A DNA stretch of 63,387 bases, counting the filler, from Kipferlia bialata (lineage: Eukaryota), in the NCBI GenBank assembly GCA_003568945.1. It is 5 parts of 5 records of this genome, joined end to end, with 100 filler letters (N's around TTAATTAATTAA, not from the genome) between each part and the next. Parts side by side here need not be neighbours in the genome. Positions count along the whole stretch, not along the records: positions 38,107 to 50,697 come from BDIP01001062.1; 4 more parts are not named here. One strand, written 5' to 3'. Below, piece by piece: positions 26,428 through 58,909 of this stretch. A model generated the notes under the pieces. That model worked only from the letters and a program-made list of their open reading frames with translations, was not told the origin of the DNA and made no database searches. Position 1 is the stretch's first letter, and each line of letters opens with the position of its first letter. A program made the position numbers and the translations under genes.

Positions 26428-26499
26428 GGGCGCGTAGTTAAGTGGTATAACGCTCCCTTCGCATGGGAGAGGCCCGGGGTTCGATTCCCCGCGCGTCCA
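26428..26499 (+). tRNA. tRNA-Ala (anticodon CGC)
   Basis: GGGCGCG/CGCGTCC acceptor stem with the G3:U70 alanine identity pair, D arm, CTCCC-TTCGCAT-GGGAG anticodon arm, GGTTCGATTCC T loop; no intron, no encoded CCA. Confidence 0.96.
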
Positions 26500-26566
26500 C
26501 ATTTCATTGTCTTAGTCTGACCATTCAGTGAATCAAGGACAGAGTTGAACTCTTTTTCACCCGAAC

Positions 26567-35044: not shown

Positions 35045-37188
35045 ATGACAATGGATACCGACAACCTCGCAGTTAACACCATCAGGTGTCTCTCGGCCGA
35101 CATGGTCTCTAAGGCCAAGAGCGGACACCCAGGAGCCCCCATCGGTGAGTTGTTGTAATATGGATGTTTTCCTATTGATTTCCGTCCCCCTGCTGGGTAA
35201 TATACCTCAGCTAACGTCTAGGATGTGCCCCCATCGCCCATGTGCTCTTCTCCGACCTTATGAAGTTCTACGCACCCGTCCCCAAGTGGATGGGACGCGA
35301 CTACTTTGTGCTGTCCAACGGCCACGCCTCTGCCCTCATGTACTCCATGCTGCACCTCGCTGGCTTCAAGCTGCCCATGTCTGAGCTCGAGAACTTCAGG
35401 CAGTTCGGTTCCAAGACCCCCGGCCACCCTGAGCGTGGAGTGACCCCAGGTGTTGAGGTCACCACCGGTCCTCTGGGTCAGGGTGTGTCCAACGCAGTGG
35501 GTATCGCCGTTGCTGCCAAGGTCATGGGCCACAAGTACAACAAGCCCAACTTCCCCCTGTTTGACAACCACGTGTACTCCATTGTGGGCGACGGATGCCT
35601 GATGGAGGGTGTGTCAGCCGAGGCCCTCTCTCTGGCCGGCACCCTCAACCTGGACAACCTCACAGTCATCTGGGACGACAACAAGATCACCATCGACGGA
35701 GCCACCGACCAGGCCTTTGCCGAGGACACCATCGCCAGGTTCAAGGCCTATGGCTTCGAGACCTTTGTGGTGGAGGAGGGAGACACCGACATTGTCGGCC
35801 TCAGGGAGACCCTGGCCAAGGCCAAGGCCTGCCCCAAGCCATCCTTCGTGGCTGTCCGCACCACCATCGGATACAAGTCTGCCAAGGAGGGCACAGCCGC
35901 TGTCCACGGCTCCCCCCTCAACGCCGAGCACCTAGCCGAGCTCAAGGGAGCCCTGGGCATGCCCGCCGACAAGTTCTTCCACGTGCCCGAGAGCGTGGAG
36001 GCCCACTACAAGGGCAAGGGCGTGGCCCGCGAGGCTGCCTTTGAGGAGTGGTCTCAGATGGTCGAGGCGTACCTGGCCACCTACCCCGAGAACGCCAACG
36101 TGGTGAAGAGGATCATCTCTGGTGAGCGTGAGGTCGAGGCTGACGCCGAGGCTCTCATTGCCACTCTCATGGAGAAGGACCTCAAGGACTCCTTCCCAGT
36201 GGGCAAGGGCCTCTCCACCCGTAAGGCCTCTGGCGAGGTGCTCTCCGCCCTCTACAACGAGCTGCCCTGGATGATGGGAGGCTCTGCTGACCTCTCCGGC
36301 TCCAACTGCACCCGCATTGCAGGTGCCGGTGTGTTTGGAAAGGACAACCGCGACAGCCGCTACATCCCCTTCGGAGTGAGGGAGCACGCTATGTGCGCCA
36401 TCTCCAACGGTATCGCCGCATACTCCACCGCCCTCGTCCCCTTCGACGCCACATTCCTCGTGTTCCTCGGGTACTGCGTGGGCGCCCTCAGGGTGGGAGC
36501 CCTGTCCAGGCAGAGGTCCATCCACGTGTTCACCCACGACTCCATCGGTCTGGGTGAGGACGGCCCCACCCACATGCCCATTGAGACCATGACCTACATC
36601 AGGTCCACCCCCAACATGGCTGACTGGAGGCCGGCTGACGGAGACGAGACCATCGGCGCCTACGCCTGGTCCGTGTGCTGCTCCGAGGGCCCCTCTGTGA
36701 TGGCTCTGTCCAGGCAGAACGTGCCCCACCTTGCTGGATCTACCCCTGCCAAGGCCATGCGCGGAGGATACGTTGTGGTGCAGGAGACCACCGAGGCCCC
36801 CAAGGTGGTCCTCATCTCCACAGGCACCGAGGTGTCCCTCACCATCGAGGCCGCCAAGGCTGTCGAGGCCGCATACGGCGTCGAGGGCTGTGTGCGTGTG
36901 GTGTCCATGCCTTCCATGGTCGTGTACAAGAGGCAGTCTGCTGAGTACCGCGCCTCCGTGGTCCCCGCTGGTGTGCCCGTTGTGTCTGTGGAGCCCCACC
37001 ACTCCATGTCCTGGGCCGGCCTCTCCCACTTCCACATCGGCCTCGACCGCTTTGGCGAGTCTGCCCCCATCAAGGCCCTGTACGAGCACTTTGGCTTCAC
37101 CCCCGAGGCCATCTGCGCCAAGGTCCAGAAGGTGGTCGCCCAGCTCGAGGGCAACGTGCCCGCCCTCGGATTCGTCCAGGTCGAGTAG
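35045..37188 (+). CDS. tkt: Transketolase
   Basis: Exon 35045-35144 (AVNTIRCLSADMVSKAKSGHPGAPI), intron 35145-35221, exon 35222-37188 with RDYFVLSNGHAS, TPGHPE, TTGPLGQG, GDGCLMEG..WDDN (TPP motif), FGVREHAM, THDSIGLGEDGPTH. Strong C-ending codon bias. Confidence 0.98.
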
Positions 37189-38106: not shown

Positions 38107-38157
<51 letters not shown>

Positions 38158-38159
38158 GA

Positions 38160-40613
38160 GATGCTCAGGCACACCCAGGGCCTTGGCATTGGCCAGGGCC
38201 TGGTATTTAGGGTGTAGAGGGAGATAGAGGTCCTTCACTACTCATCAGTATATATGCACTCATACCTTTGCCTTGTTCTCTCTCATCCTTTGGAATCCCA
38301 GTTGGATGTACTTGACAGAGGTGAAGGCACGAAGCCATGCACCGATAGAGACCTAGGGTTAGTAAACAATAGTAAATGAATATATATATATAGAGAGAGA
38401 GAGATTGATGGGTGAACTGGCCCTAAGCCAGGCACCCATGGATACCTATATATCAGTACTTAAGTATTGATGTAGATAGACAGATACAAGGAGAGAGAGA
38501 GAGACTCACCAGAGCAGAGTGCGGGTTGAGACAGCACACCACTGCATACTATTGTTGTTTGCAGTAGTATATACATATATATAGTGATACACATTCTTAT
38601 AGTAGTGTATACTACTGCTTACCAGGGCACTGTGGGGGTTGAGGCAGCACACCACCGCATACTTGAGTGCCACAGTAGAGTCATTGAAGGCAGTGCCGAG
38701 CATATCCGGCAGCCTAACATTAAGGGTGTAGAGGGAGAGAGAGAGAGAGAGAGACCCATACCTCAGTTTGTGCTTTGGCTTGCCTTTGATATAGAGGGTG
38801 AATATACTAATAATAAGAGACCCATACCTCAGCTTGTGCTTGGGCTTTCCGTTGGCCATGACGGCCTCTCTCTTGTTGGAGGTGCCTATGATAGAGGCGA
38901 GGACCTAGTATTAGACTCTCTCTATATATATATGTGTGTATATACATATATGCATGATGGCCTCTCTCTTGTTGGAGGCAAGGACCTGGGGTTAGACTAT
39001 ATGTAGATAGTATATATTACACATATATGTACGGCAAATGAATGACCTCTCTCTTGGCAAGGACATGAGTTAAGTAGCTGCATATACTATGCCATGTGTA
39101 TATACACATATATGCATATGGCCTGTCTCTTGTTGGACATGACAATGATTGTACTAACAAGGATAGTATACTCTTAGAGGATTTCCTTGTACCTCCACTC
39201 CTGCGTCTATGTTGCCGCATATCAGCACTGCCTCTGCAAATGCAGCATCGGACTCTAGCACAGCAGAGCAGATGCCGGAGAAGACGGGACCAGCGGCCTG
39301 GGGTCACTAATATACTGGTATATTATAGAACTATCTATTCACACATACCTCCAGCCACGTGAGCCTTGTGAATGCCTCCTTTGATACTCCATCTATCTCT
39401 GTCTCTCTCTCTCTCTCTTTATATATATATACAATATATATATATATATACCTCTAGCCACGTGAGCCTTGTGAATGCCTCCTTGAGGATGGGGTACTTG
39501 GCCAGGGGGGTCTGTCTGGGGGGTGAGGAACAGAGATTCTACAGAAGCTATAGAATCTATCATTGTAAGTGTCTATGAATGTATTTCCATACCTCTTCTC
39601 CAGTAAGGGTGTCAGTGCCACCAGCTTGGACACATCCATATCTCTCTCTCTCTATATATATATATACATATATATATACCTCTTCTCTAATAGTGGTGTC
39701 AGTGCCACCAGCTTGGACACATCCATCTTGGCCTGGAGGGCATCCCAGTTCTAGTGGTTAGAGTACACACACACACATATATATATATACAGAGAGAGAG
39801 AGAGATATATAGAGAGAGAGAACATCTTGGCCTGCAGGGCATCCCAGTTCTGGAGTAAGATGTATATGTACATGTATATATACACACACATATATATAGA
39901 TGGAGATAGAGAGAGAGATACCATCCATCTTGGCCTGGAGGGCATCCCAGTTCTGGAGGGGTTAGATATACACACAGACATACACACATGAATATACTAT
40001 GTATGTACCTATCTCTATAACTATATGAGTATTGTATGATGGTATACATCTATACCTGTGCCATGGCATACATGCATGCCGCACTGGAGTGCACTTCTAT
40101 GTCACCCCTCATGACCATGGAGATGAGGTTGAACAGGAGCATAAGGACCTGGAATGAGGGGCTAGAGAGAGAGAGAGAGAGAGAGATACACTCATGTATT
40201 TGAACAGGAGCATAAGGACCTAGAGTGAGAGTGTATGTGTGAGAGAGAGTACAAGTTGATACAGTATATGCGTACTATAGCTATACAATTGCATGTACCT
40301 GTCCATCATATACGTGATACAATAGTTTACATACTACTCTTATTATCTACTCACCTGGAACTGTCCGAATCCAAAGAGTGAGTTTGGGTTGATGGTGCTT
40401 GCCATCACATATATATATATATATACATATATATATGTATACATACATTTACATAGACATTATGGTGTGTATCTACATAACTATTCACAACTCACCTGGA
40501 ACTGTCCGAATCCGAACAAGGAGTTGGGGTTGATTGTGCTGGCCATCATGTGACCAAAGGACTGGGAGAAGATGCCGCTAACGGCTGGCACTGTAAGGGA
40601 GCCATAACCTAGG

Positions 40614-40650
<37 letters not shown>

Positions 40651-40954
40651 TTAAGCCAAGGGGATGGAGCAGATAAGACTAAGAGAATAGGCATACCCTT
40701 CTCCTTGACGAACTGGCCAATACCGTTGGCTAGGAACTTCATCTGACGCTTGACAGAGGCATAGCCTGATAATAAGGGTGTAGAGGGAGAGAATAAGGGG
40801 TGTAGGAGGAGAGAGAGATCGCGACCATCTATGGACACCGAGTATCTATACTCATTGTAGTATAGAAGAATATTCTAAACTATATCTCACTACCTGCGAG
40901 GATTGGGACAGGGAAGTTGGCAAAGTGACCCTCGATCATTCGCACTGGTGTGAG

Positions 40955-40998
<44 letters not shown>

Positions 40999-43900
40999 TC
41001 ATACATACTGGAGTGGGCAGGAGACACTCATACGATAACAGTAATACCTGGTGTAACCAATCCGTAGTCGATGCCTGGTCTGGCCCAGAGCTTGGGGACA
41101 GCATGGTAGCTGGGGGTAAGTGATAGTATATCTATATCTATTAAGCCTCATTAAGTGTTTGCCACTATCTGAACAAAGTAATACGAAACTCACCAGTCCT
41201 CTATGCCCTGTGGCAGTCTCAAGAGGTGCTTGGCACTACATATATGTATAATATATACATACATATATATATATATATGTATTATGTATATACATAGTTC
41301 TCTATACTATTATAGATATCAATTAGATACTCACCCGTCCTCTATGCCCTGTGCCAGTCTCAGCAAGTGCTTAGTACTACATAGTGTGTATATACATATA
41401 CAAACATACATATACATATACATATACATACCCATCTTCTATGCCTTGGGCCAGTCTAAGTAAGTGCTTGGCACTCCTCAGAATGGGGACAGAGGCAGAG
41501 ACAGAGGGAGAGGCATTGACAAGCTGGTATTAAGGGTGTAGAGGGAGAGAGAGAGAGACTCCTCAGTATGGGCACAGAGGCAGAGACAGAGGGAGAGGCA
41601 TTGACAAGCTGGGGTAAAGGGTGTAGAGAGAGAGAGAGAGAGACTCTACACTGTCCACTATAGAGACTCATACCCTCTTTGTCATCTCCTTGAGGTCCTT
41701 CCAGTATGTGTTTCTGTTGGAGTGGGCCAGGTCCTCAGTCAAGGCAGCCTAAGGGTAAGTAGAGAGAGAGATACTCTGAGAGAGAGAGAGAGAGAAAGAG
41801 GAGTGGGCCAGGTCCTCAGTTAAGGCAGCCTAGCAGTGAGATACATATACACACATTCGTGCCTGGCATAATAGAAACAACCATTTGCACGAGCGGAGAG
41901 AGAGAGACTATGAGTATATATATAGTATATTAATACCTCCTGCAAGGGCCCAGTCTCACTGTCGGGACACGCCTTCTGGAACACATCGAGGATCTGTTAT
42001 TAATGGGTGCGGAGAGAGAGAACAATACGATTTAAGGGTGCATGTCATGCACTGCATGAATTTAGGAAATTCAATTTATATCAATTTAGTAAATTCAATT
42101 TACAGTATACTGTCTTGACAACCACTGTACAATATATATATACAATCTATAATATATATAAATGTAATACATATAATAGCATACCTCCAGTGTCAGTGTT
42201 GGCTTGATTGGCCTGCAGTCCAGGAAGGTGTTGGAGGCCTAGAGGGTTAGTATAAAAGAGAGAGAAAGAGAGAGAGAGAGAGAATGAGGGTCTGCAGTCC
42301 AGGAAGGTGTTGGAGGCCTAAGGGTAAGGTAATAAGAGAGAGAGAGAGAGAGCGAGAGACAGATAGACCGTGTTGGAGGAAAAGGACCGTAGCTAACCAA
42401 CAAAAGAGGGAGTGAGAGAGAGCAGGGAAATACCTTGTAGAGCTCCGGCTTGAATGCCACGAAGACCCTCAGCTTGTGCACGGGCTGCTTCAGTCTGGAG
42501 GGTGAGAGAGTAGAAACACAAAGAATGGTATGATTCCCAGCGACATATTATGATATAGTGACTGAGCTTGTGGACAGGCTGCTTCAGTCTGAAAGGTGAG
42601 AAGGGACATATATATATATATATGTGTGTGTAATTAGAGAATACAACACGTACAGGTATGTACATATATAGATATACATATACCCATATATACACCCACC
42701 TGTCCATGTACTTGCCGGTATATATACACGTGTGAGATTGACACACTACACACATACATACACATATGTATGTAAACGTGTATATGAGTACCCCCACCTG
42801 ACCAGGTACTTGCCATACACACTATATACAATGTATATATATATCATTATATATATACAATATATATATCATGTATATATATATACAATATATATATCTA
42901 TTAGAATACATACACTCCCACCTGACCAGGTACTTGCCATACATACACTATATTACATTCATATATTATCAAACATGCCTGACCAGGTACTTGCCGTTCA
43001 GGAAGCATACTACTATATAGTAGATACAAAGAAATATATGGTTATATATATATACATAAATCTAACAAGTATGTACCCCCACCTGACCAGGTACTTGCCG
43101 TTCAGGAAGCTTACTATTGTGTATATANNNNNNNNNNNNNNNNNNNNNNNNNNNNNNNNNNNNNNNNNNNNNNNNNNNNNNNNNNNNNNNNNNNNNNTAT
43201 GTATACGTGTATATAAGTACCCCCACCTGACCAGGTACTTGCCGTTCAGGAACCTGAGCATCTGACCGGGCCTACAGGGTTAGGAAGGGAGAGAAAAGAG
43301 AGTGAGAGGAGGGGAATATTCAATGTGTGTCTCTACCGTCATAGATGATTAGATTAAACAACTCATTAACGCATTGTGTCTCTCCAAGTGTACAGGGTGA
43401 TGACTGTCGAGTATATCAAATGAATGCACACATATCCCATATTGGTTACACATATATACTATAGTATTCAGATAACACTCACTTAGTATTGCGGCCAGTG
43501 TACAGGGTGATGACTCTGTCGAAGAAGTGCTGGGCATCTGCAGTTAGGCTATTCGAAGATTGAACACATATGCATTATATATATATGGTCTATACCGGCT
43601 GTCGGTGCCCCGTTGCTGTGGAATATGATGTGGGCACCGAATATTCATATATATACACATATAAATATTATGCAGTGTAAATAGAGTGTATATACCTGCC
43701 GTTGGCGCCCCGTTGCTGTGGAATATGATGTGGGCACCAGTCTCCAGGGACTTCATGGCAATGGGGAACAGGGCCTAGTATGAGTACACGTACACATATA
43801 TACCTACATATATATCTTACTATATGAACTATTCATCTTAGTGGGCAGGTCCAGGTTGAGCACTGCAATCTGTCCCTCCATATACATGTGGGTATACACT

Positions 43901-46773
43901 ATACTATATCTATATAACTATATATACATGTATACTCTATACTATATATACACATTCATAATAATATATATATATACCTTGGTGGGCAGGTCCAGGTTCA
44001 GCACTGCAATCTGTCCCTCCATATATATGTATACACTATTATATATATACATATATATATATATTACTATATTACTATATATACTGTGTATGCTATACCT
44101 TAGTAGTAAAATATAGTAGTATATACAGTATATAGAATATAGAATAGTATATATAGTATATACAATATACCTTCGTGGGCAGGTCCAGGTTCAGCACTGC
44201 AATCTGGCACTTCTTGCGCATGGCAGCTAGATATCTGGGAATTAGGGTGTAGAGGAGGAGAGAGAGATCTTACGCATGGCAGCCAGGTATCTGGGAATAG
44301 GGAGAGAAAGCGATGGTAGAAAGAGGCAATATTGTCTACTTATGGTGAAGGGTAGCTTAGGGGTATACATATGTGTGCTTAAGAATATATAATTATATAT
44401 ATATACCTCCTGTTGTCTGCACTTGTGTTCTGTGCCTGCAGTCCCTCTAACAGTCCATCCCTCCACATCTGCACACAGGTGGCAACCTATATATTAAAGG
44501 TGTAGAGGGAGAGAGAGAGAATATCTGGACACACGTGGCAACCTGGGCATTAAGGGTGTAGAGGGAGGGAGATAGTGCGCTCCTGAAGCCCATATATACT
44601 AACCTATATCCCCTGCACATTATAGAAACACGGTATGCTCTGCAGGAAGTATATATAATGCAATACTATATATATACATATACATACTATATACATACCT
44701 CTATGCCATGTACATTGTCAAAGAATGGGATGCTCTGTGGGAAGTGCACCGTGGCCATACAGGCACGGACACAGGAGAGGAGGGAAGAATCAACGGAGGG
44801 GAGGGCGCCTATTGTAAGAGGGGGCCACCAACTAAGGAACAATACATAACCCATATAATGCATGTATATACCTGAGTATAGCCACAAGAATGGCTTCATC
44901 TGCTGGTTGGCTGGGAACATGAAGTAGTACTGGCCAGAGGCCATGCCAGCTAGGAACAGGGAGGTAGACAGGGATACATCTGTCATGTCCTACACATTAG
45001 AGAGAGAGAGAGAGAGAAAGACCAGGAGTGACAGTGAGAATAGTGGTCCAGACTAAGAGAGAGAGAGAGGAGAGAGAGAGAGAGATCCACTCACCTCCAC
45101 CCCACACAGCACGTTGACCCTGGCAATCAGGCCCTTGAAGTTGTCCTGAAGGGTGAATAAAGGGTGTAGAGGGAGAGAATAAAGGGTGTAGAGGGAGAGA
45201 GATATCAATGCCATGGAATACAGTAATCCAGAATACATGCATATAATGTACAATAGCAATACTTTCATATATATACAATGTGTATACACTGTATATACAA
45301 TACCTGCTCCGGATGGCTGAAGAACTCGTTGGAGAACAGATAGAGCACAGCAAGGTGGGCACCCCTGGTGACAAGGACCTTCATCTCGGCCTGGGGTTAA
45401 AGGGTGTAGAGGGAGAGACAGATCCTTCACACATGAATATGTATCTCAATATGGACAAGTATATATACCTCCTTGCTCTCATCCCTTGGCAGCACCGTCC
45501 TGATGCTCTGTCTGATCTCAGCCAGTACTGTCTGGACCTCGTCCAGCTCGGGGGAGGGCTCTAACTCCTATCGCGTAAGAAAACCCCTTTCAATAGAATA
45601 CAGTTAAACCGTGCTTCTACAGTCTACAGGCATATTGAATGTAGATGTCAGCGAAACAGGCGCATATGCATATACCCACCTGCAGTAGTGCCTTCTCGTG
45701 TCTCTCCAGGACCCTCATGGTGTTGCCAAGCTCAATGCGCTCAGCCTATGGTTAAGGTATGCAAACATACACACACGCAAGAGACTGTCAGAACCAGTAT
45801 CATGCAACTGAAAGAGTATATAGCGCTATCAATAATGATTGGTAAATACCATACCTTTGCCCTCTTCCAGTATCTCTCCATGGCGCTCATGGCATACATG
45901 GTGAACTGGTATTAAGGGTGTAGAGGGAGAGAGAGAGAATAAGAGAGAGAGAGATGGTACTCATGGCATACTATGGTACACTCTAGTAATTCATATCATG
46001 TATATAAGCTATATACTAAGGGTGTAGACAGAGAGAGAGATACCTGGTTGAACTGTGGCGCACTCTCTGGGTACATGGTGGTCACAGTGTCAAACATCAG
46101 TGCTACTCTAAGTGTCAGAATGAATACACAATACATATACATAAATATGTATATTAATGGGATACTCATTAGAATAACATGATTAATTCTCTGGGTACAT
46201 GGTGGTCACGGTGTCAAACATCAGAGCAACCCTAGGCATAAGATAGGCATAAGAATAGTAGGATTTACAAAAGAATAGGGAGTAATTCATTGGATATGTC
46301 GCCATAACGGTGTCAAACATGAGGGCAACTCTAGGTGTAAGAGAGAGTGATATATAGTGTAATAGTAGACATACACATCTATGTATGTACATTAACGTAC
46401 TGGCTGAAAAAGAACTTGAATGCGTCTGGTGCAATCTTGCGTCCGAAGCGTGACTCTAGGTATCTGTACACACTGTTGGTGGACTGTAACAGTGATCCAA
46501 GTCTGCGGGTCAGAGAGAGCGAGAGAGAGAGACTGTTCGTGGAGTATAACATAGTGAGCCAAGGCTTCTTTAGAAAGTGTACCTTGATGGGTATGCCATA
46601 TTTAGTCCGTGACCCAGTCTGCTAGGGCATATATATATATATATGATATAGTACATATACATACATATATAGTATACTTACATATATATTTACTTATGTA
46701 TATACCTACTAGGGTATGCCATATTAAGTCCGTGACTCAGTCTGCTAGGGTATCCCATGAAAATAATACATAC

Positions 46774-46810
<37 letters not shown>

Positions 46811-47600
46811 CAAGTGTCTATACCTTGATGGGTATGCCATGTTGAGCCCGTGACTCAGCCTGCTAGGGTATATATATGATACAGCATACATACATATATA
46901 TATATCATCAATAGGCATATACCTAGAGGGGTATGCCATATAATACATATATATAATTAATATATATAGACATTGATGAAAATACCTGCTGGGATACGCC
47001 ATGTTGAGCCCGTGACTCAGCCTGCTAGGGGGAGAGTGTCTGGTGGTCACAATGACACCCATGTGCTGGGCTGGGTGTAAATAGGGGTGTAGAGGGAGAG
47101 AGAGAGAGAGAGAGAGAGAAGATACAATGACACCCATGTGCTGGGCTGGGNNNNNNNNGAGAGAGAGAGAGAGAAGATACAATGACACCCATGTGCTGGG
47201 CTGGGTGTAAATAAGGGTGTAGGGGAGGAGAGGGAGGGAGAGAGAGAGAAGTTACAATGACACCCATGTGCTGGGCTGGAGGGTAAATAAGGGTGTAGGG
47301 GAGGAGAGAGAGGGAGAGAGAGAGAAGTTACAATGACACCCATGTGCTGGGCTGGGGGTAAATAAGGGTGTAGAGGGGGAGAGAGAGAGAGAGAAATTAC
47401 AATGACACCCATGTGCTGGGCTGGGTGTAAATGAGGGTGTAGAAAAGGGTGTAGATAGATAGAGAGAGAGAGAGAGAATGTATGTGTATACCTAGCTTCA
47501 TGGTGAGTACAGCTGCATCTGGCTGAGGGAGCACATACTTCTCGCCAAGGGTGAGGTACAACTGACCAAGAGCAGCCCTGGTATTAAGGGTGTAGAGAGA

Positions 47601-47631
<31 letters not shown>

Positions 47632-47869
47632 GTACAACTGACCAAGGGCAGCCCTGGTATTAAGGGGTGTAGAGGTAGAGAGAGAGAGAGACAGAGAGAG
47701 AGGGATAGGTGACCCAGGGCAGTCAAGATAATCAAGTGTAATGATGGATATACATATGTAGATATACACATACCTTGAGAACACGGGTGGGATGAGTCCG
47801 TTGTTGAAGGAGGAGACAGTCTGTCTGAGGACAGCTGAGTCCTTAATCATATCGCCTGGTATTAAGGGT

Positions 47870-47908
<39 letters not shown>

Positions 47909-48670
47909 GGTTAGCTGAGTCCTTGATCATGTCGCCTGGTATTAAGGGTGTAAAAGGGGAGACTGTATAATGTGTACCTGGTGCAGAATCAAATATATTA
48001 TGGGTCTAGAGAGAGAGAGAGAGAGAGGGCTGCTTACCTGGAATGTGCAGCAACACCCTGCTGAAAAGTGTCTCACATATGTTCCCAGATATTCTACACA
48101 CATATTAGTAGTAGTACTACACAATATACATACAATATTTGCTTACCTGGTATATGCAGTAGTACTCTACTGAAGAGTGTCTTCTCACTGGTGAACTTGG
48201 TGGATATGGGGGAGGTGACATCGCCACCGGGGAAGACCTAGAATAAGAGACAAAACACTCAGAGAGAGAGAGAGAGAGATGGGGAAGACCTATAGTGAGT
48301 AAAGCGAGAAAGCAGTCAAGTATCTATGATATGAGAAGTACTCACAGAGTACGAATGCACATACCTTGTATGGTGACACGTTCATCTCAACCCGCTGGCC
48401 CTCCATCTCACTGGGGTTAGAGGGAGGGAAGGAGAGAGAGATTCAACTGTACACTCTATGTACGATACCTATACATGTTAGTATATACGCACTACACACA
48501 CCTCGCCTTGTCCAGGGGCAGTGCCACATGTACTTTCACACATACACCATACTCTCTCTTCCTCTCTACATATGACCCCATAAACTATATGGTATGAACT
48601 ATATGCACACTATACCCACCTAGCCTCATCTAGAGGTAGTGCCACCTGGGCTGGGAGGCCACTAATACTA

Positions 48671-48702
<32 letters not shown>

Positions 48703-49414
48703 CATACTGCATACCTCGCCTCATCTAGAGGTAGTGCCACCTGGGCAGGCAGACCACAGGCAAGGACAATGGCTAGACGGACCAGGGATGCTATCTGGGA
48801 TGGTTAGTATTGAGCGAATACAATAAACGTACAATATTCTATCCTATATGGGATACCTATGTACCAATATATACAACACATACTATTTAACGAGTTCATA
48901 CCTGCTCCTCCTATGTACCATATACTACACTACCTATATATGAAACCTATACATCTATATCAACGATAAGCAATAAAATAACATCACATACTAGTACCTG
49001 CTCCTCGTCGTTCTGGAATGTACTATATACTATACTACATGGGAAAAATGATATATAACTAAGATTAAGATACCTATGTCTCTATTTATATGTAATAATA
49101 CAATCAGATACCTGCTCCTCCTCGTTCTGGAATGACAGAGAGGCCCACACAACCTGGGGGTGAAAAGGGGTGTAGAGAGAGAGAGAGAGAAATATATATA
49201 TATAGAGCTGAGGGTGAAATGGGTGTAGAGGGGGAGAGAGAGAGAGATGACAGTGAGGCCACACAACCTGGGGGTGGAAAGGGGTGTAGAGGGGGAGAGA
49301 GAGGGGAAAGAAATGGCAGTGGCAGTAATCAGGAGATGTACATTGTGTAAACATACACTAATAAACATACATATATACCTGCCGCAATGGAGACTCGTGT
49401 GACTCTGCCACACC

Positions 49415-49467
<53 letters not shown>

Positions 49468-49568
49468 CCTGCTGCAGTGGCGACTCGTGTGACTCTGCCA
49501 CACCCAGACCCCTTCTGATGACATCAAGGTCAACAACTAGCCTGATATTAGGGTATATATATAGGTAT

Positions 49569-49601
<33 letters not shown>

Positions 49602-49960
49602 CCTCTCCTGATGACATCGAGGTCAGCAACAGGCCTGATATTAGGGAACACAATATATATATACAATATTCATATATATATAGAGATAGAGGTACTGTCC
49701 TGATGACACCGACATTCCTGTCTCAACAACTGGCCTATGGTTAGAATACATGTATACTTGTATTTACAATATATGACAATAGGAGAAAGAGAAAGGAGAG
49801 AGGTCCTCCTGATGATATGGTTGTCAAACACTAACACAAGAAATAAGAAGACAAAAGGGGATTCATATACATGTATGTACAATACCTAGGCAGGTATCTC
49901 TCGTGCTGGGATCCAAAGAAGGATGCACTGGAGACAGTGGATATACCTGGGAATTAAGGG

Positions 49961-50001
<41 letters not shown>

Positions 50002-50642
50002 CACTGGAGACAGTGGATAAACCTGGGAATGAGGGTGTAGAGAGGGAAAACGGCATACATTTTCCACATAATAATGGTACACATGTATATGTATAAGAAC
50101 ACTACATATCACTCTGAGCCACGGATAAGTGAACATTTAGAATATTGACTATTTATGATACATTCCACACACATATTATAGTACAATTAATGTATATCAC
50201 TCTGTGCATCGGATGCCACAGTCCTAGTATATACATACTGCACATGACGTGTACATATATATGTATATTAATACACATATATGTATATACTATTACACAT
50301 ATATATAATTTCCATACCGCTCTGTGCCACTGATGCCCCGTCCCAGTTCTCACTCTTGTTGTACCTGGGAATAAGGGTGTAGAGGGAGAGAGAATGTGAA
50401 GATGTTACTGGAGTTACTGCTAGGTGGAGAAAACAGCATCAAGCAATATCAGTACACACTGCTGCCATGGCTGCCCTGTGATTGCATCCTCTCTCTCTAT
50501 ACATATACACACATGATTCTGTATTATATACACTAGTCTCTCTCTCTCTCCATTATATATCTATATCTATACATATCATACGTACACACTGCTGCCCTGA
50601 CTGCCCTGTGAGGCACTGTCCCACTTGTCAGAGCTGCCCTCT
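38160..50642 (-). CDS. Internal part of one very large hypothetical protein split into roughly 40-45 exons of 30-120 nt
   Basis: Splice signals across the contig are on the minus strand and the exons checked join in frame, e.g. AALGQLYLTLGEKYVLPQPDAAVLTMKL, PAQHMGVIVTTRHSPPSRLSHGLNMAYPSR, VALMFDTVTTMYPESAPQFNQ, YLAAMRKKCQIAVLNLDLPTK, YGSLTVPAVSGIFSQSFGHMMASTINPNSLFGFGQFQ. No start or stop seen; family not recognised. Confidence 0.75.
47050..47477 (-). repeat. Tandem array, 6 copies of a ~55-75 nt unit (3' splice cassette + first ~22 nt of an exon)
   Basis: CAATGACACCCATGTGCTGGGCTGG at 47050, 47125, 47180, 47255, 47331 and 47400, most followed by TAAGGGTGTAG..(GA)n; one copy abuts an 8-nt N gap. 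Confidence 0.9.
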
Positions 50643-50648
50643 AGGGGT

Positions 50649-50697
<49 letters not shown>

Positions 50698-50797
50698 NNN
50701 NNNNNNNNNNNNNNNNNNNNNNNNNNNNNNNNNNNNNNNNNTTAATTAATTAANNNNNNNNNNNNNNNNNNNNNNNNNNNNNNNNNNNNNNNNNNNN
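50698..50797. other. Artificial contig spacer
   Basis: N-TTAATTAATTAA-N, 100 nt. Confidence 0.98.
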
Positions 50798-56584: not shown

Positions 56585-58909
56585 ATGGGTCTGTTCTCAT
56601 GCTGCACAAAGGGGGACACAGGTATAATTGATATTTAGGTTTACATATATATATATATCATGTGATGTATAATGTGTGAGTATAGTGTATGTATAGTGTA
56701 GATGCATATTCTCATGCTGCACAAAGGGGGAGACAGGTATAGATGTATCACAGTTATATAGTATGTATGTATATTGTATGTACGCAATATATATTTTTAA
56801 AGAAGGAACTATTAGAATAGTATATGTAAGGTACATTCTTATAATAGTACTACTCTATCTGTTTGTATGTGTCTATCTGTTTGAATCTCTCTGATTATCT
56901 CACTCTCTTACCACCAGGCCGTGCCCCCCTGGCAGAGTATATACATGCATTATACATATCTATCTATATACTAATTGGTCCTACATAGTATGTGAATCAT
57001 TGTGTCTCACCCCTAGGCCGTGCCCCCCTGGCACATGACACAGAGACAGGAGGTACATAGTATACATACCCTTGAGTATATGTAGTAGTGTATGGTGGAT
57101 AGTTACAGTGTATATCTATTAACCACTGGCACATGACACAGAGACAGGAGGTACATACACACTCACACACACACACATATATATATGAATATGGTATATA
57201 GTATAGTGTATATCTATTAACCACTGGCACANNNNNNNNNTGAATATGGTATATAGTATAGTGTATATCTATTAACCACTGGCACATGACACAGAGACAG
57301 GAGGTGGGGGATAGTATAGATAGATGATTGTATACGTGTATATATGTATATATTTAGTAGTACTATATATTCTCTATGTGTATATACCCCTGGCACATGA
57401 CACAGAGTCAGGAGGTGGGGGATAGTATATATTGTGTATATATATTTGTAGTAATTTCATTGTGTATATGCCCCCCCTGGCAGATTACACAGAGTCAGGA
57501 GGTAGGAGATATACTATGTATGTTTCACTCTTACATACACATTTTTATATGGCGGAAGTTGGAGTGTACTTCATATAGTACCAGACATGTGGCCATACAT
57601 ATTAGTCACTCTCATTCTCTCTCTCTCTCCCCTTACCCTACACATACTCCCTCTAGAGATTATAATCTATCTCTCTATCTCTCTCTGTGTCTACATCTAT
57701 ATATACAGTTTTTATACACACATGTGTATCTATACCCCTTTACCCTAGACATGCTGCCCCTAGAGATTATGGTCTCTCTCTCTCTCTCTGTATCTCTCTC
57801 TCTATATATATCTATAAATGTGTGTATATATATGTACATCCCTCTTACCCTAGACATGCTCCCCCTGGAGGTTGAGGGTCAGGGTGAGGGCCAGACACAG
57901 ACATGGGATGAGGGAGGTATGTATACATATTTACATAAATATATAGATATATGCATATGTATCACTTAGATTATCCCTTACTGTAGGTGAGATACAGACA
58001 TGGGATGAGGGAGGTATATATAGATATATGCATATATATGTATATACATCAGTTAGATAGACCCTTACTGTAGGCCAGACCTCTGCATGGGATGAGGGTG
58101 TGACCCCATTACCCATGTCACCCAGGACACCGGACATGGGGGCATATAGCACAGGTATTATATACTATTTACACACTCATATGTATGTATGTATACACTT
58201 ATATAGATATACATGTATAGACCGGACGTGTGTGCATACAGCACAGGCACTTCTATTACTCTCTACCCATCACCGTATCTTTTGCTAATTGAGTATATTG
58301 GTAATATTGATTATATATATAGTGTTTTTACGCGGCCTCCTCAATTGCGGGGTATTGGAGACACTGTCCCTACATTGTTGTTCCATTATATTACTCCAGC
58401 CCCTCAGATATCGATTGTTCAGCCAGTAGTAGTGGCCGGAGGCATAGACCCTGTATCATAATGTATTTACTATATATTCTATATATCCTATTCTTTGATA
58501 TCTCACCCTAGCCCCTCAAGTCACCCAGTCTGCCATGGCCAGAGGCATACCCTCTGCACCATAGTACATTATACCATATGTATACTAATACAACTATATA
58601 CCTATTCTCTCTTTTGTATCTCACTCTAGCCCCTCAAATCCCCCCTCACCCTGTCCTGGCCAGAGGCATACCCTCTGTACCCTTCCCACCCACATTCGAC
58701 TCCATCTGTGGGTCAGACTTCAGGTATATGTGATAGTGCTCTCTTTCTCTCTCTCTCTACATCCTTTATTTGGAGCGTGTGTTCCCTCTATGTATGTCCT
58801 TTTCTCTCTCTCTCCTCACCTCAGTGTACCACCCTTGCCCTTGACACTGTTGAGCCACATAGGTACATGGTAATATATACACCCACATGTATATATGTTA
58901 CTTGATTTA

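Follow-up and report, generated by a model that had tools for sequence, protein, structure and literature searches.

Mirage-like copies of exon ends in Kipferlia bialata introns, with mostly silent divergence in one gene

The window, i.e., the whole analyzed stretch of 63,387 nt from the free-living protist Kipferlia bialata, consists of five scaffolds joined at N linkers. The array described here lies in the scaffold at positions 38107–50697, within the minus-strand gene KIPB_004798 (38160–50640; partial, 42 exons on one scaffold, median exon length 72 nt). The 42-exon model built from coordinates contains no stop and agrees with the annotated protein P0001 at all compared residues. Pfam search of P0001 gives no families and Atlas search no usable match; a profile-free search yields 18 further proteins, and the nine that were looked up are all from K. 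bialata. P0001 and P0004–P0021 form a Kipferlia family of very large proteins, up to 4000–5100 amino acids. A weak match to the dynein family DHC_N2 is seen in five of the six family proteins scanned, above the cut-off in two, and the one full-length paralog tested has no match in PDB. Judging from these weak DHC_N2 matches in its relatives, KIPB_004798 probably encodes the C-terminal portion of a degenerate dynein-heavy-chain-like protein, and the family is apparently a lineage-specific expansion of such genes.

Functional exon 11 (85 nt, 46986–47070, modeled as in P0001) lies between the upstream exon 10 (47492–47577) and the downstream exon 12 (46401–46502); these exons and all copies listed below are on the minus strand. 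On the donor side, copy 1 (46923–46941) repeats the last 19 nt of exon 11 with its GT donor, and copies 2 (46824–46868), 3 (46706–46750), and 4 (46583–46627) are 45 nt long. Copies 3 and 4, both carried by contig record 4 of the DNA run, show 8 differences from the exon, all synonymous, and 11 differences, one of them a replacement, Ser>Gly, respectively. The codon readout agrees with the first-pass annotation, which had given the last Ser codon as AGC in the exon and TCT, TCA, AGT, and TCA in copies 1–4, Leu as CTC/CTT/CTA, and AGT>GGT in the most distal copy as the lone replacement. The acceptor-side array (47124–47480) has five units with a period of about 75, each composed of a (CT)n tract, a TACACCC motif, AG, and the start of exon 11. 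The exon parts (22–25 nt; 47124–47145, 47179–47200, 47251–47275, 47327–47351, and 47399–47420) differ from the exon start at 0–1 positions; an 8-N gap is found at 47151–47158. The tandem repeats have periods of 118 (2.7 copies) and 75 (5.9 copies) here.

Searched with a degenerate 32-nt pattern, the exon end has four matches (the exon, 46836–46867, 46718–46749, and 46595–46626), and a 26-nt pattern of the acceptor junction has six (the real site and five copies), with 0 matches for either in 100 shuffles; the positions first reported for the donor-side and acceptor-side copies are all correct. What had been described as ten versions of the exon is one exon with four donor-end copies (19–45 nt) and five acceptor-end copies. 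The near-identity of the latter holds, their number being unsure, as the 8-N gap stands between two identical copies; the claim of ongoing duplication partly rests on the two flanking this gap. Rfam search of positions 44000–50700 gives no matches, and a structured RNA or an intron-borne RNA gene was rejected on this ground.

Such copies are a feature of the entire gene, rather than an oddity of one exon. Blind ungapped alignment of each exon with its flanking introns reveals 47 exon-end copies in 28 of the 41 introns of KIPB_004798, focal copy 1 being below the score threshold and absent from this count. Of the donor-side copies, 22 of 25 stop where the exon does, followed by GT, and of the acceptor-side copies, 20 of 22 begin at the exon start after AG, so that 42 of the 47 are anchored at a splice site; in all four introns having both types, donor copies precede acceptor copies. 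In the PH-domain gene P0003, 12 copies are seen in 8 of 19 introns, and in KIPB_004801, 21 copies in 11 of 17 introns (after removal of three annotated exons that are copies and mending of two aligner splits), i.e., 33 copies in 19 of 36 introns for the two genes combined. The three removed exons of KIPB_004801 (57987–58013, 61412–61444, and 61519–61545) may be mistakes of annotation, or else copies that were taken up as exons, which is how mirages can lead to intron gain; exon-end copies can thus mislead annotation.

The copying is patchy along the genome, as judged from five scaffolds. A frame-free repeat scan, which gives only a rough density (and whose 67/115 spacing result is not relied on), finds 3 and 2 anchored pairs in the first two scaffolds and, in the remaining three, 25, 155, and 107 redundant pairs. 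Microsatellite content (0.8, 1.4, 4.9, 13.2, and 11.2%, respectively) tracks these counts, which are raw and not normalized by intron number. The two microsatellite-poor scaffolds, positions 1–25309, are almost free of exon-end copies.

The focal copies are skipped in the mRNA, at least in its dominant form, the evidence being assembled contigs, which hide rare isoforms. Contig record 9 (depth 153) of run X2, presumed to be an RNA run and yielding a contig that proved spliced, carries exons 10, 11, and 12 at consecutive record positions (136–221, 222–306, and 307–408) with 0 differences; hence, the real exon 11 is used with the nearest acceptor and the first donor. With leave-one-out matrices, the donors of the focal copies score 10.9, 10.9, 10.9, and 7.8 (copy 1, 10.9) vs. 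11.0 for the real donor, and the four intact acceptor copies score 9.0–11.6 vs. 9.3. Over the gene, the copy site is at least as strong as the real one for 8 of 22 donors and 10 of 19 acceptors. Splicing at a copy site leads to stops in all five focal alternative uses tested, and no donor is present in exon 11 at the point where the copies begin.

Site choice by position and not by strength, as suggested by this one dominant contig, is what exon definition predicts, and short exons fit the same mode; intron definition would choose the innermost pair of splice sites, whereas the contig joins exons 10, 11, and 12. Mutually exclusive clusters of the Dscam type consist of whole exons with both splice sites, which are used and differ in protein sequence. 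The Kipferlia arrays share with them the stacked exon variants and conserved protein sequence, but the copies are half-exons, encode the same residues, and are skipped in the mRNA contig; mutually exclusive alternative exons were rejected, given the half-exons and the stops in five of five alternative uses.

Judged from the sequence, the exon-end copies are structurally repeats of the type known in amphioxus as mirages, of which Canestro et al. 2002 is the original description. Human VNTRs in F7 intron 7 and CBS intron 13 are also related in form: the first unit spans the exon–intron boundary and the intronic donors are repeated, the first being normally used. To our knowledge, these are single loci with near-identical units, and we know of no gene-wide occurrence or silent-difference excess among them. 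Mirages are reported from amphioxus Adh3, the globins BflGb6 and BflGb9, troponin C, and PGBD5 (PMC3087553 and PMC3902484). As described there, they are, as in Kipferlia, minisatellite-like tandem units across the exon–intron boundary, on the 5′ or 3′ side, which keep AG/GT and leave normal splicing unaffected; the amphioxus units are 81–100% identical and 10–160 bp long, and the Kipferlia units are about 75 and 118. Of five defining features of mirages, three are seen here, i.e., boundary-spanning tandem units, retained AG/GT, and regular splicing in the dominant mRNA. As for concerted evolution among units, the acceptor units are near-identical, and the donor units are mosaic, with up to 11 of 45 nt different from the exon. 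The fifth feature is length instability between haplotypes or cells, for which the data cover a single strain.

What is new, compared with the known mirages, is the density and the codon-shaped, mosaic divergence. In amphioxus, a chordate, a handful of loci is described, and in the metamonad Kipferlia, copies are found in 28 of the 41 introns of KIPB_004798 and in 19 of the 36 of P0003 and KIPB_004801; PMC3087553 and PMC3902484 report no codon-position analysis in their passages on mirages, and the word “synonymous” is absent from both papers. The Rogers model of intron gain via tandem duplication of splice sites (as summarized in PMC3087553) likewise involves short internal duplications with splice signals, but there the duplicate makes a new intron, and in Kipferlia the duplicates are silent inside existing introns. 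The K. bialata genome has 124,912 introns, and “duplicat” does not occur in the genome paper (PMC5874029); the spliceosome is reduced, 87 proteins having been found of the 174 searched for, and no candidate for an snRNA (PMC6679479). Neither a description of exon-end copies in Kipferlia nor an analysis of codon bias in mirages was found in the open-access literature searched. The mechanism making mirages is described as unclear (PMC3087553), and the Kipferlia genome, where in some genes at least half of the introns carry copies, allows it to be tested on a large scale.

In KIPB_004798, divergence of the copies from their exons follows the codon structure. Of the 147 differences in 466 codons, 118 fall at codon position 3, with pS 0.351, pN 0.030, and pN/pS 0.085; the synonymous share is 0.78, whereas a neutral copy next to an exon under full constraint should have 0.47 (p = 1.5e-14). 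Counts that allow for shared ancestry keep the excess: unique codons show 93 synonymous vs. 22 replacement changes, and one copy per intron 78 vs. 19 (p about 1e-11). Comparison of copies with each other gives 20 vs. 6 (p = 2e-6 against 0.31, the probability that a neutral change is synonymous under the observed mutation spectrum); all three are codon counts set against a per-base expectation, and are approximate. Of the 28 introns, 22 are synonymous-led and 3 show the reverse. GC3 is 0.691 in copies vs. 0.695 in exons, with 34 W>S and 32 S>W third-base changes, i.e., the copies do not drift toward intron composition. Given the synonymous excess and the unchanged GC3, most differences of the copies arose under coding constraint.

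A simple model (dS = theta + 2x, dN = x + omega(theta + x)) gives a donor silent divergence of 0.41–0.47 and limits the decay after copying, x, to about 0.03 per site or less. Per-copy divergence is slightly better described as a spread (exponential, AIC 172.5–173.2) than as two classes (175.6), with 186.9 for a single rate. Decayed copies do exist, among them the copy in intron 20, and two of the decayed copies have stops. Residues of paralogs match only 4 of the 22 copy replacements and the changed sites are not clearly less conserved (p = 0.09), leaving the replacements unsupported as tolerated variants.

This silent-site signal, strong in KIPB_004798, is absent in P0003 and KIPB_004801, where Sd is 28, Nd 33, pS 0.128, and pN 0.051, and the synonymous share of 0.46 shows no excess over the neutral-copy value of 0.47 (p = 0.63). 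The two proteins look low-complexity and may be weakly constrained, yet pS is about three times lower, too. Four further copies at five hand-modeled exon ends have 10 synonymous vs. 4 replacement codons.

Among the 47 copies, 3 of 36 Ser-to-Ser codon pairs change class, at two sites (introns 11 and 40), with copy 1 as an additional case. It had been argued that an AGY/TCN switch needs at least two substitutions via a non-Ser state. A long path via lost states is not needed, since instantaneous jumps are documented (10.1101/2020.05.13.091652, which gives empirical support for them and describes a literature divided on the route) and paralogs carry Thr or Pro at the focal Ser position; the class switch would fit an old divergence without proving one, and is weaker evidence of age than claimed earlier.

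Arg and Ser codons at the focal exon end occur as AGG+AGY in the exon, AGG+TCN in copy 2, AGA+AGY in copy 3, and AGA+TCN in copy 4. Copy 2 is a mosaic, its 5′ part being that of the exon and its 3′ part that of copy 4. Since all four combinations are seen despite one common 5′ breakpoint (copies 2–4 begin at the same exon base), the sequences point to recombination or conversion after one founding duplication as the origin of the focal donor copies. Intron starts behind each donor hardly align past GTA, though the encoded residues are kept. Of the four long-diverged functional versions proposed in the first-pass annotation, the coding-constrained divergence stands, but the copies are recombinant mosaics and not four independent lineages.

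Since most differences between copies and exon are silent, recombination likely brought the copies in from other functional forms of the gene, and they possibly form a record of gene variation within one genome. The explanation we favor, giving it about an even chance, is that they are mirage-type tandem copies of splice junctions, skipped in mRNA and renewed through exchange with diverged working alleles of the gene, either by unequal crossing-over or by gene conversion. A short tandem duplication over a splice junction would leave a half-exon, introns rich in (TA)n and (CT)n favoring such events. Exon definition would pair the nearest acceptor and donor across the short exon, and half-exons with strong sites would be ignored and tolerated; here, skipping is shown for the dominant mRNA, and exon definition is the presumed mechanism. 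A copy on one chromosome could then mispair with the working exon end of another allele, and crossing-over or conversion would produce units with the old outer breakpoint and working-allele sequence, that is, mosaics with silent differences. Turnover of units would outpace their decay, and the copies would have no coding function of their own. The nearest annotated paralog (56% identity) was rejected as a donor, as it differs in the exon 11 end.

Several observations do not favor alleles as donors. An allelic diversity of 0.4 is not seen in P0003 and KIPB_004801 (pS 0.128), and no second allele or strain was found, the sequence searches for one each giving a single match, and scans of metagenomes for the protein and the intron-end motif being empty. 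Crossover geometry predicts enrichment of replacements far from the splice site, which is not clearly observed (p = 0.14). A second RNA contig (record 10, 5847 nt, depth 106) has 9 differences in 93 nt of exon 19 (44870–44962); it could represent a close paralog, an allele, or a conversion tract, so that a paralogous donor is possible.

That the arrays are the same mirages but received their diverged versions from close paralogs by ectopic conversion seems unlikely, if worth keeping in view. The gene is one of a family, in which 18 other proteins were matched; the synonymous excess is strong in this gene and not in P0003 or KIPB_004801; paralog introns would be unalignable, like the array spacers; and record 10 shares about 90% identity with exon 19, its 9 differences being fewer than the 11 or more that the nearest annotated paralog requires. 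The donors, however, would have to be about 95% identical in protein, since the 12 most diverged undecayed copies change 6 of 136 codons, while the 90% cluster of P0001 has one member, the exon 34 search gave P0001 only (among proteins of 77–2000 amino acids), and record 10, by bin depth, matches a single exon in the range covered; several donors would also be required to account for the four Ser codons found at one site. We consider it rather improbable that the copies themselves are under purifying selection, being often moved into the working position by deletions or conversions, or used in rare isoforms. The latter might include trans-splicing, which is known from Giardia, a relative of Kipferlia. 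Such selection would agree with the synonymous-led differences between copies and with splice signals kept at full strength, and mirage arrays are described as unstable (PMC3087553). But the RNA contig bypasses all focal copies, cis use of a copy site brings stops, exon 11 lacks a donor where the copies begin, and some copies have decayed, including the two with stops. Moreover, frequent exchange would probably erase silent differences unless population diversity were very high, which leads back to exchange between alleles.

An assembly artefact, with several haplotypes or strains stitched in tandem, is very unlikely as a general explanation and is likely true only for the number of identical acceptor units. 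It draws on the short-read SPAdes assembly, on a genome paper that lacks the word “clonal” (PMC5874029), and on the 8-N gap, bridged by no contig; further, among the contigs listed, none joins copies 1–2 with exon 11. Both runs have zero depth at 47255–47471, repeats being skipped there, so that read depth does not confirm the acceptor-side copy number, and the unit cut by the gap may be an assembly double. On the other hand, an 881-nt contig of DNA run X1 (depth 428.8, 0 differences) spans 45957–46758 with copies 3 and 4 and exons 12–13, and seven other long X1 contigs nearby have depth 394–461, several also spanning copies. The two distal donor-side copies are hence collinear in DNA at normal depth, although this run may be the source of the assembly itself and would then test the assembler and not the sample. 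The DNA run shows no alternative letters at the 5% level, and the half-exons stand in fixed order (donor before acceptor) with unique spacers. Finally, neutral decay of ordinary mirage repeats, with silent changes accumulating in the working exon, would fit P0003 and KIPB_004801 and the decayed copy in intron 20; for KIPB_004798, this is highly improbable and was rejected, as it predicts a share of 0.47 instead of 0.78, also with one copy per intron, and cannot yield synonymous-led differences between copies. A second short N gap (9) at 57232–57240 lies, like that at 47151, within an array of near-identical donor copies, and exon-end copy arrays seem to break the K. bialata assembly.

If alleles are indeed the donors, as in the favored explanation, population diversity and recombination become readable from a single culture of a protist without population data. 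We propose, tentatively and as a possibility short of probable, that the introns, thousands of them, serve as a rolling archive of the allele pool, where diverged exon ends are deposited and swapped back. In that case, silent diversity near 0.4 and a history of recombination (cryptic sex) would be preserved in a single, effectively homozygous genome of a fornicate, and the reduced metamonad spliceosome would select sites by exon definition. Codon-shaped divergence is in itself a clue that mirage units derive from recently coding sequence, and the arrays are a natural test of the choice among equally strong splice sites in a reduced spliceosome.

Other features of the window may be mentioned. 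The motif TCTACACCC occurs 40 times, mostly 8–20 nt before acceptors, and is a candidate signal of the branch-point region, without the usual CTAAC form. The intron-end motif, TACACCC with a CT tract, is found reversed inside annotated exons of KIPB_004801 (59130–59200 and 59380–59400), once as a 36-nt tandem pair, which may reflect either a remnant of an opposite-strand gene or a wrong gene model. A stretch at about 26428–26500 is tRNA-like, as judged by eye, and positions 35215–37188 hold a GC-rich, nearly intron-free ORF, which from its motifs we take to be transketolase-like.
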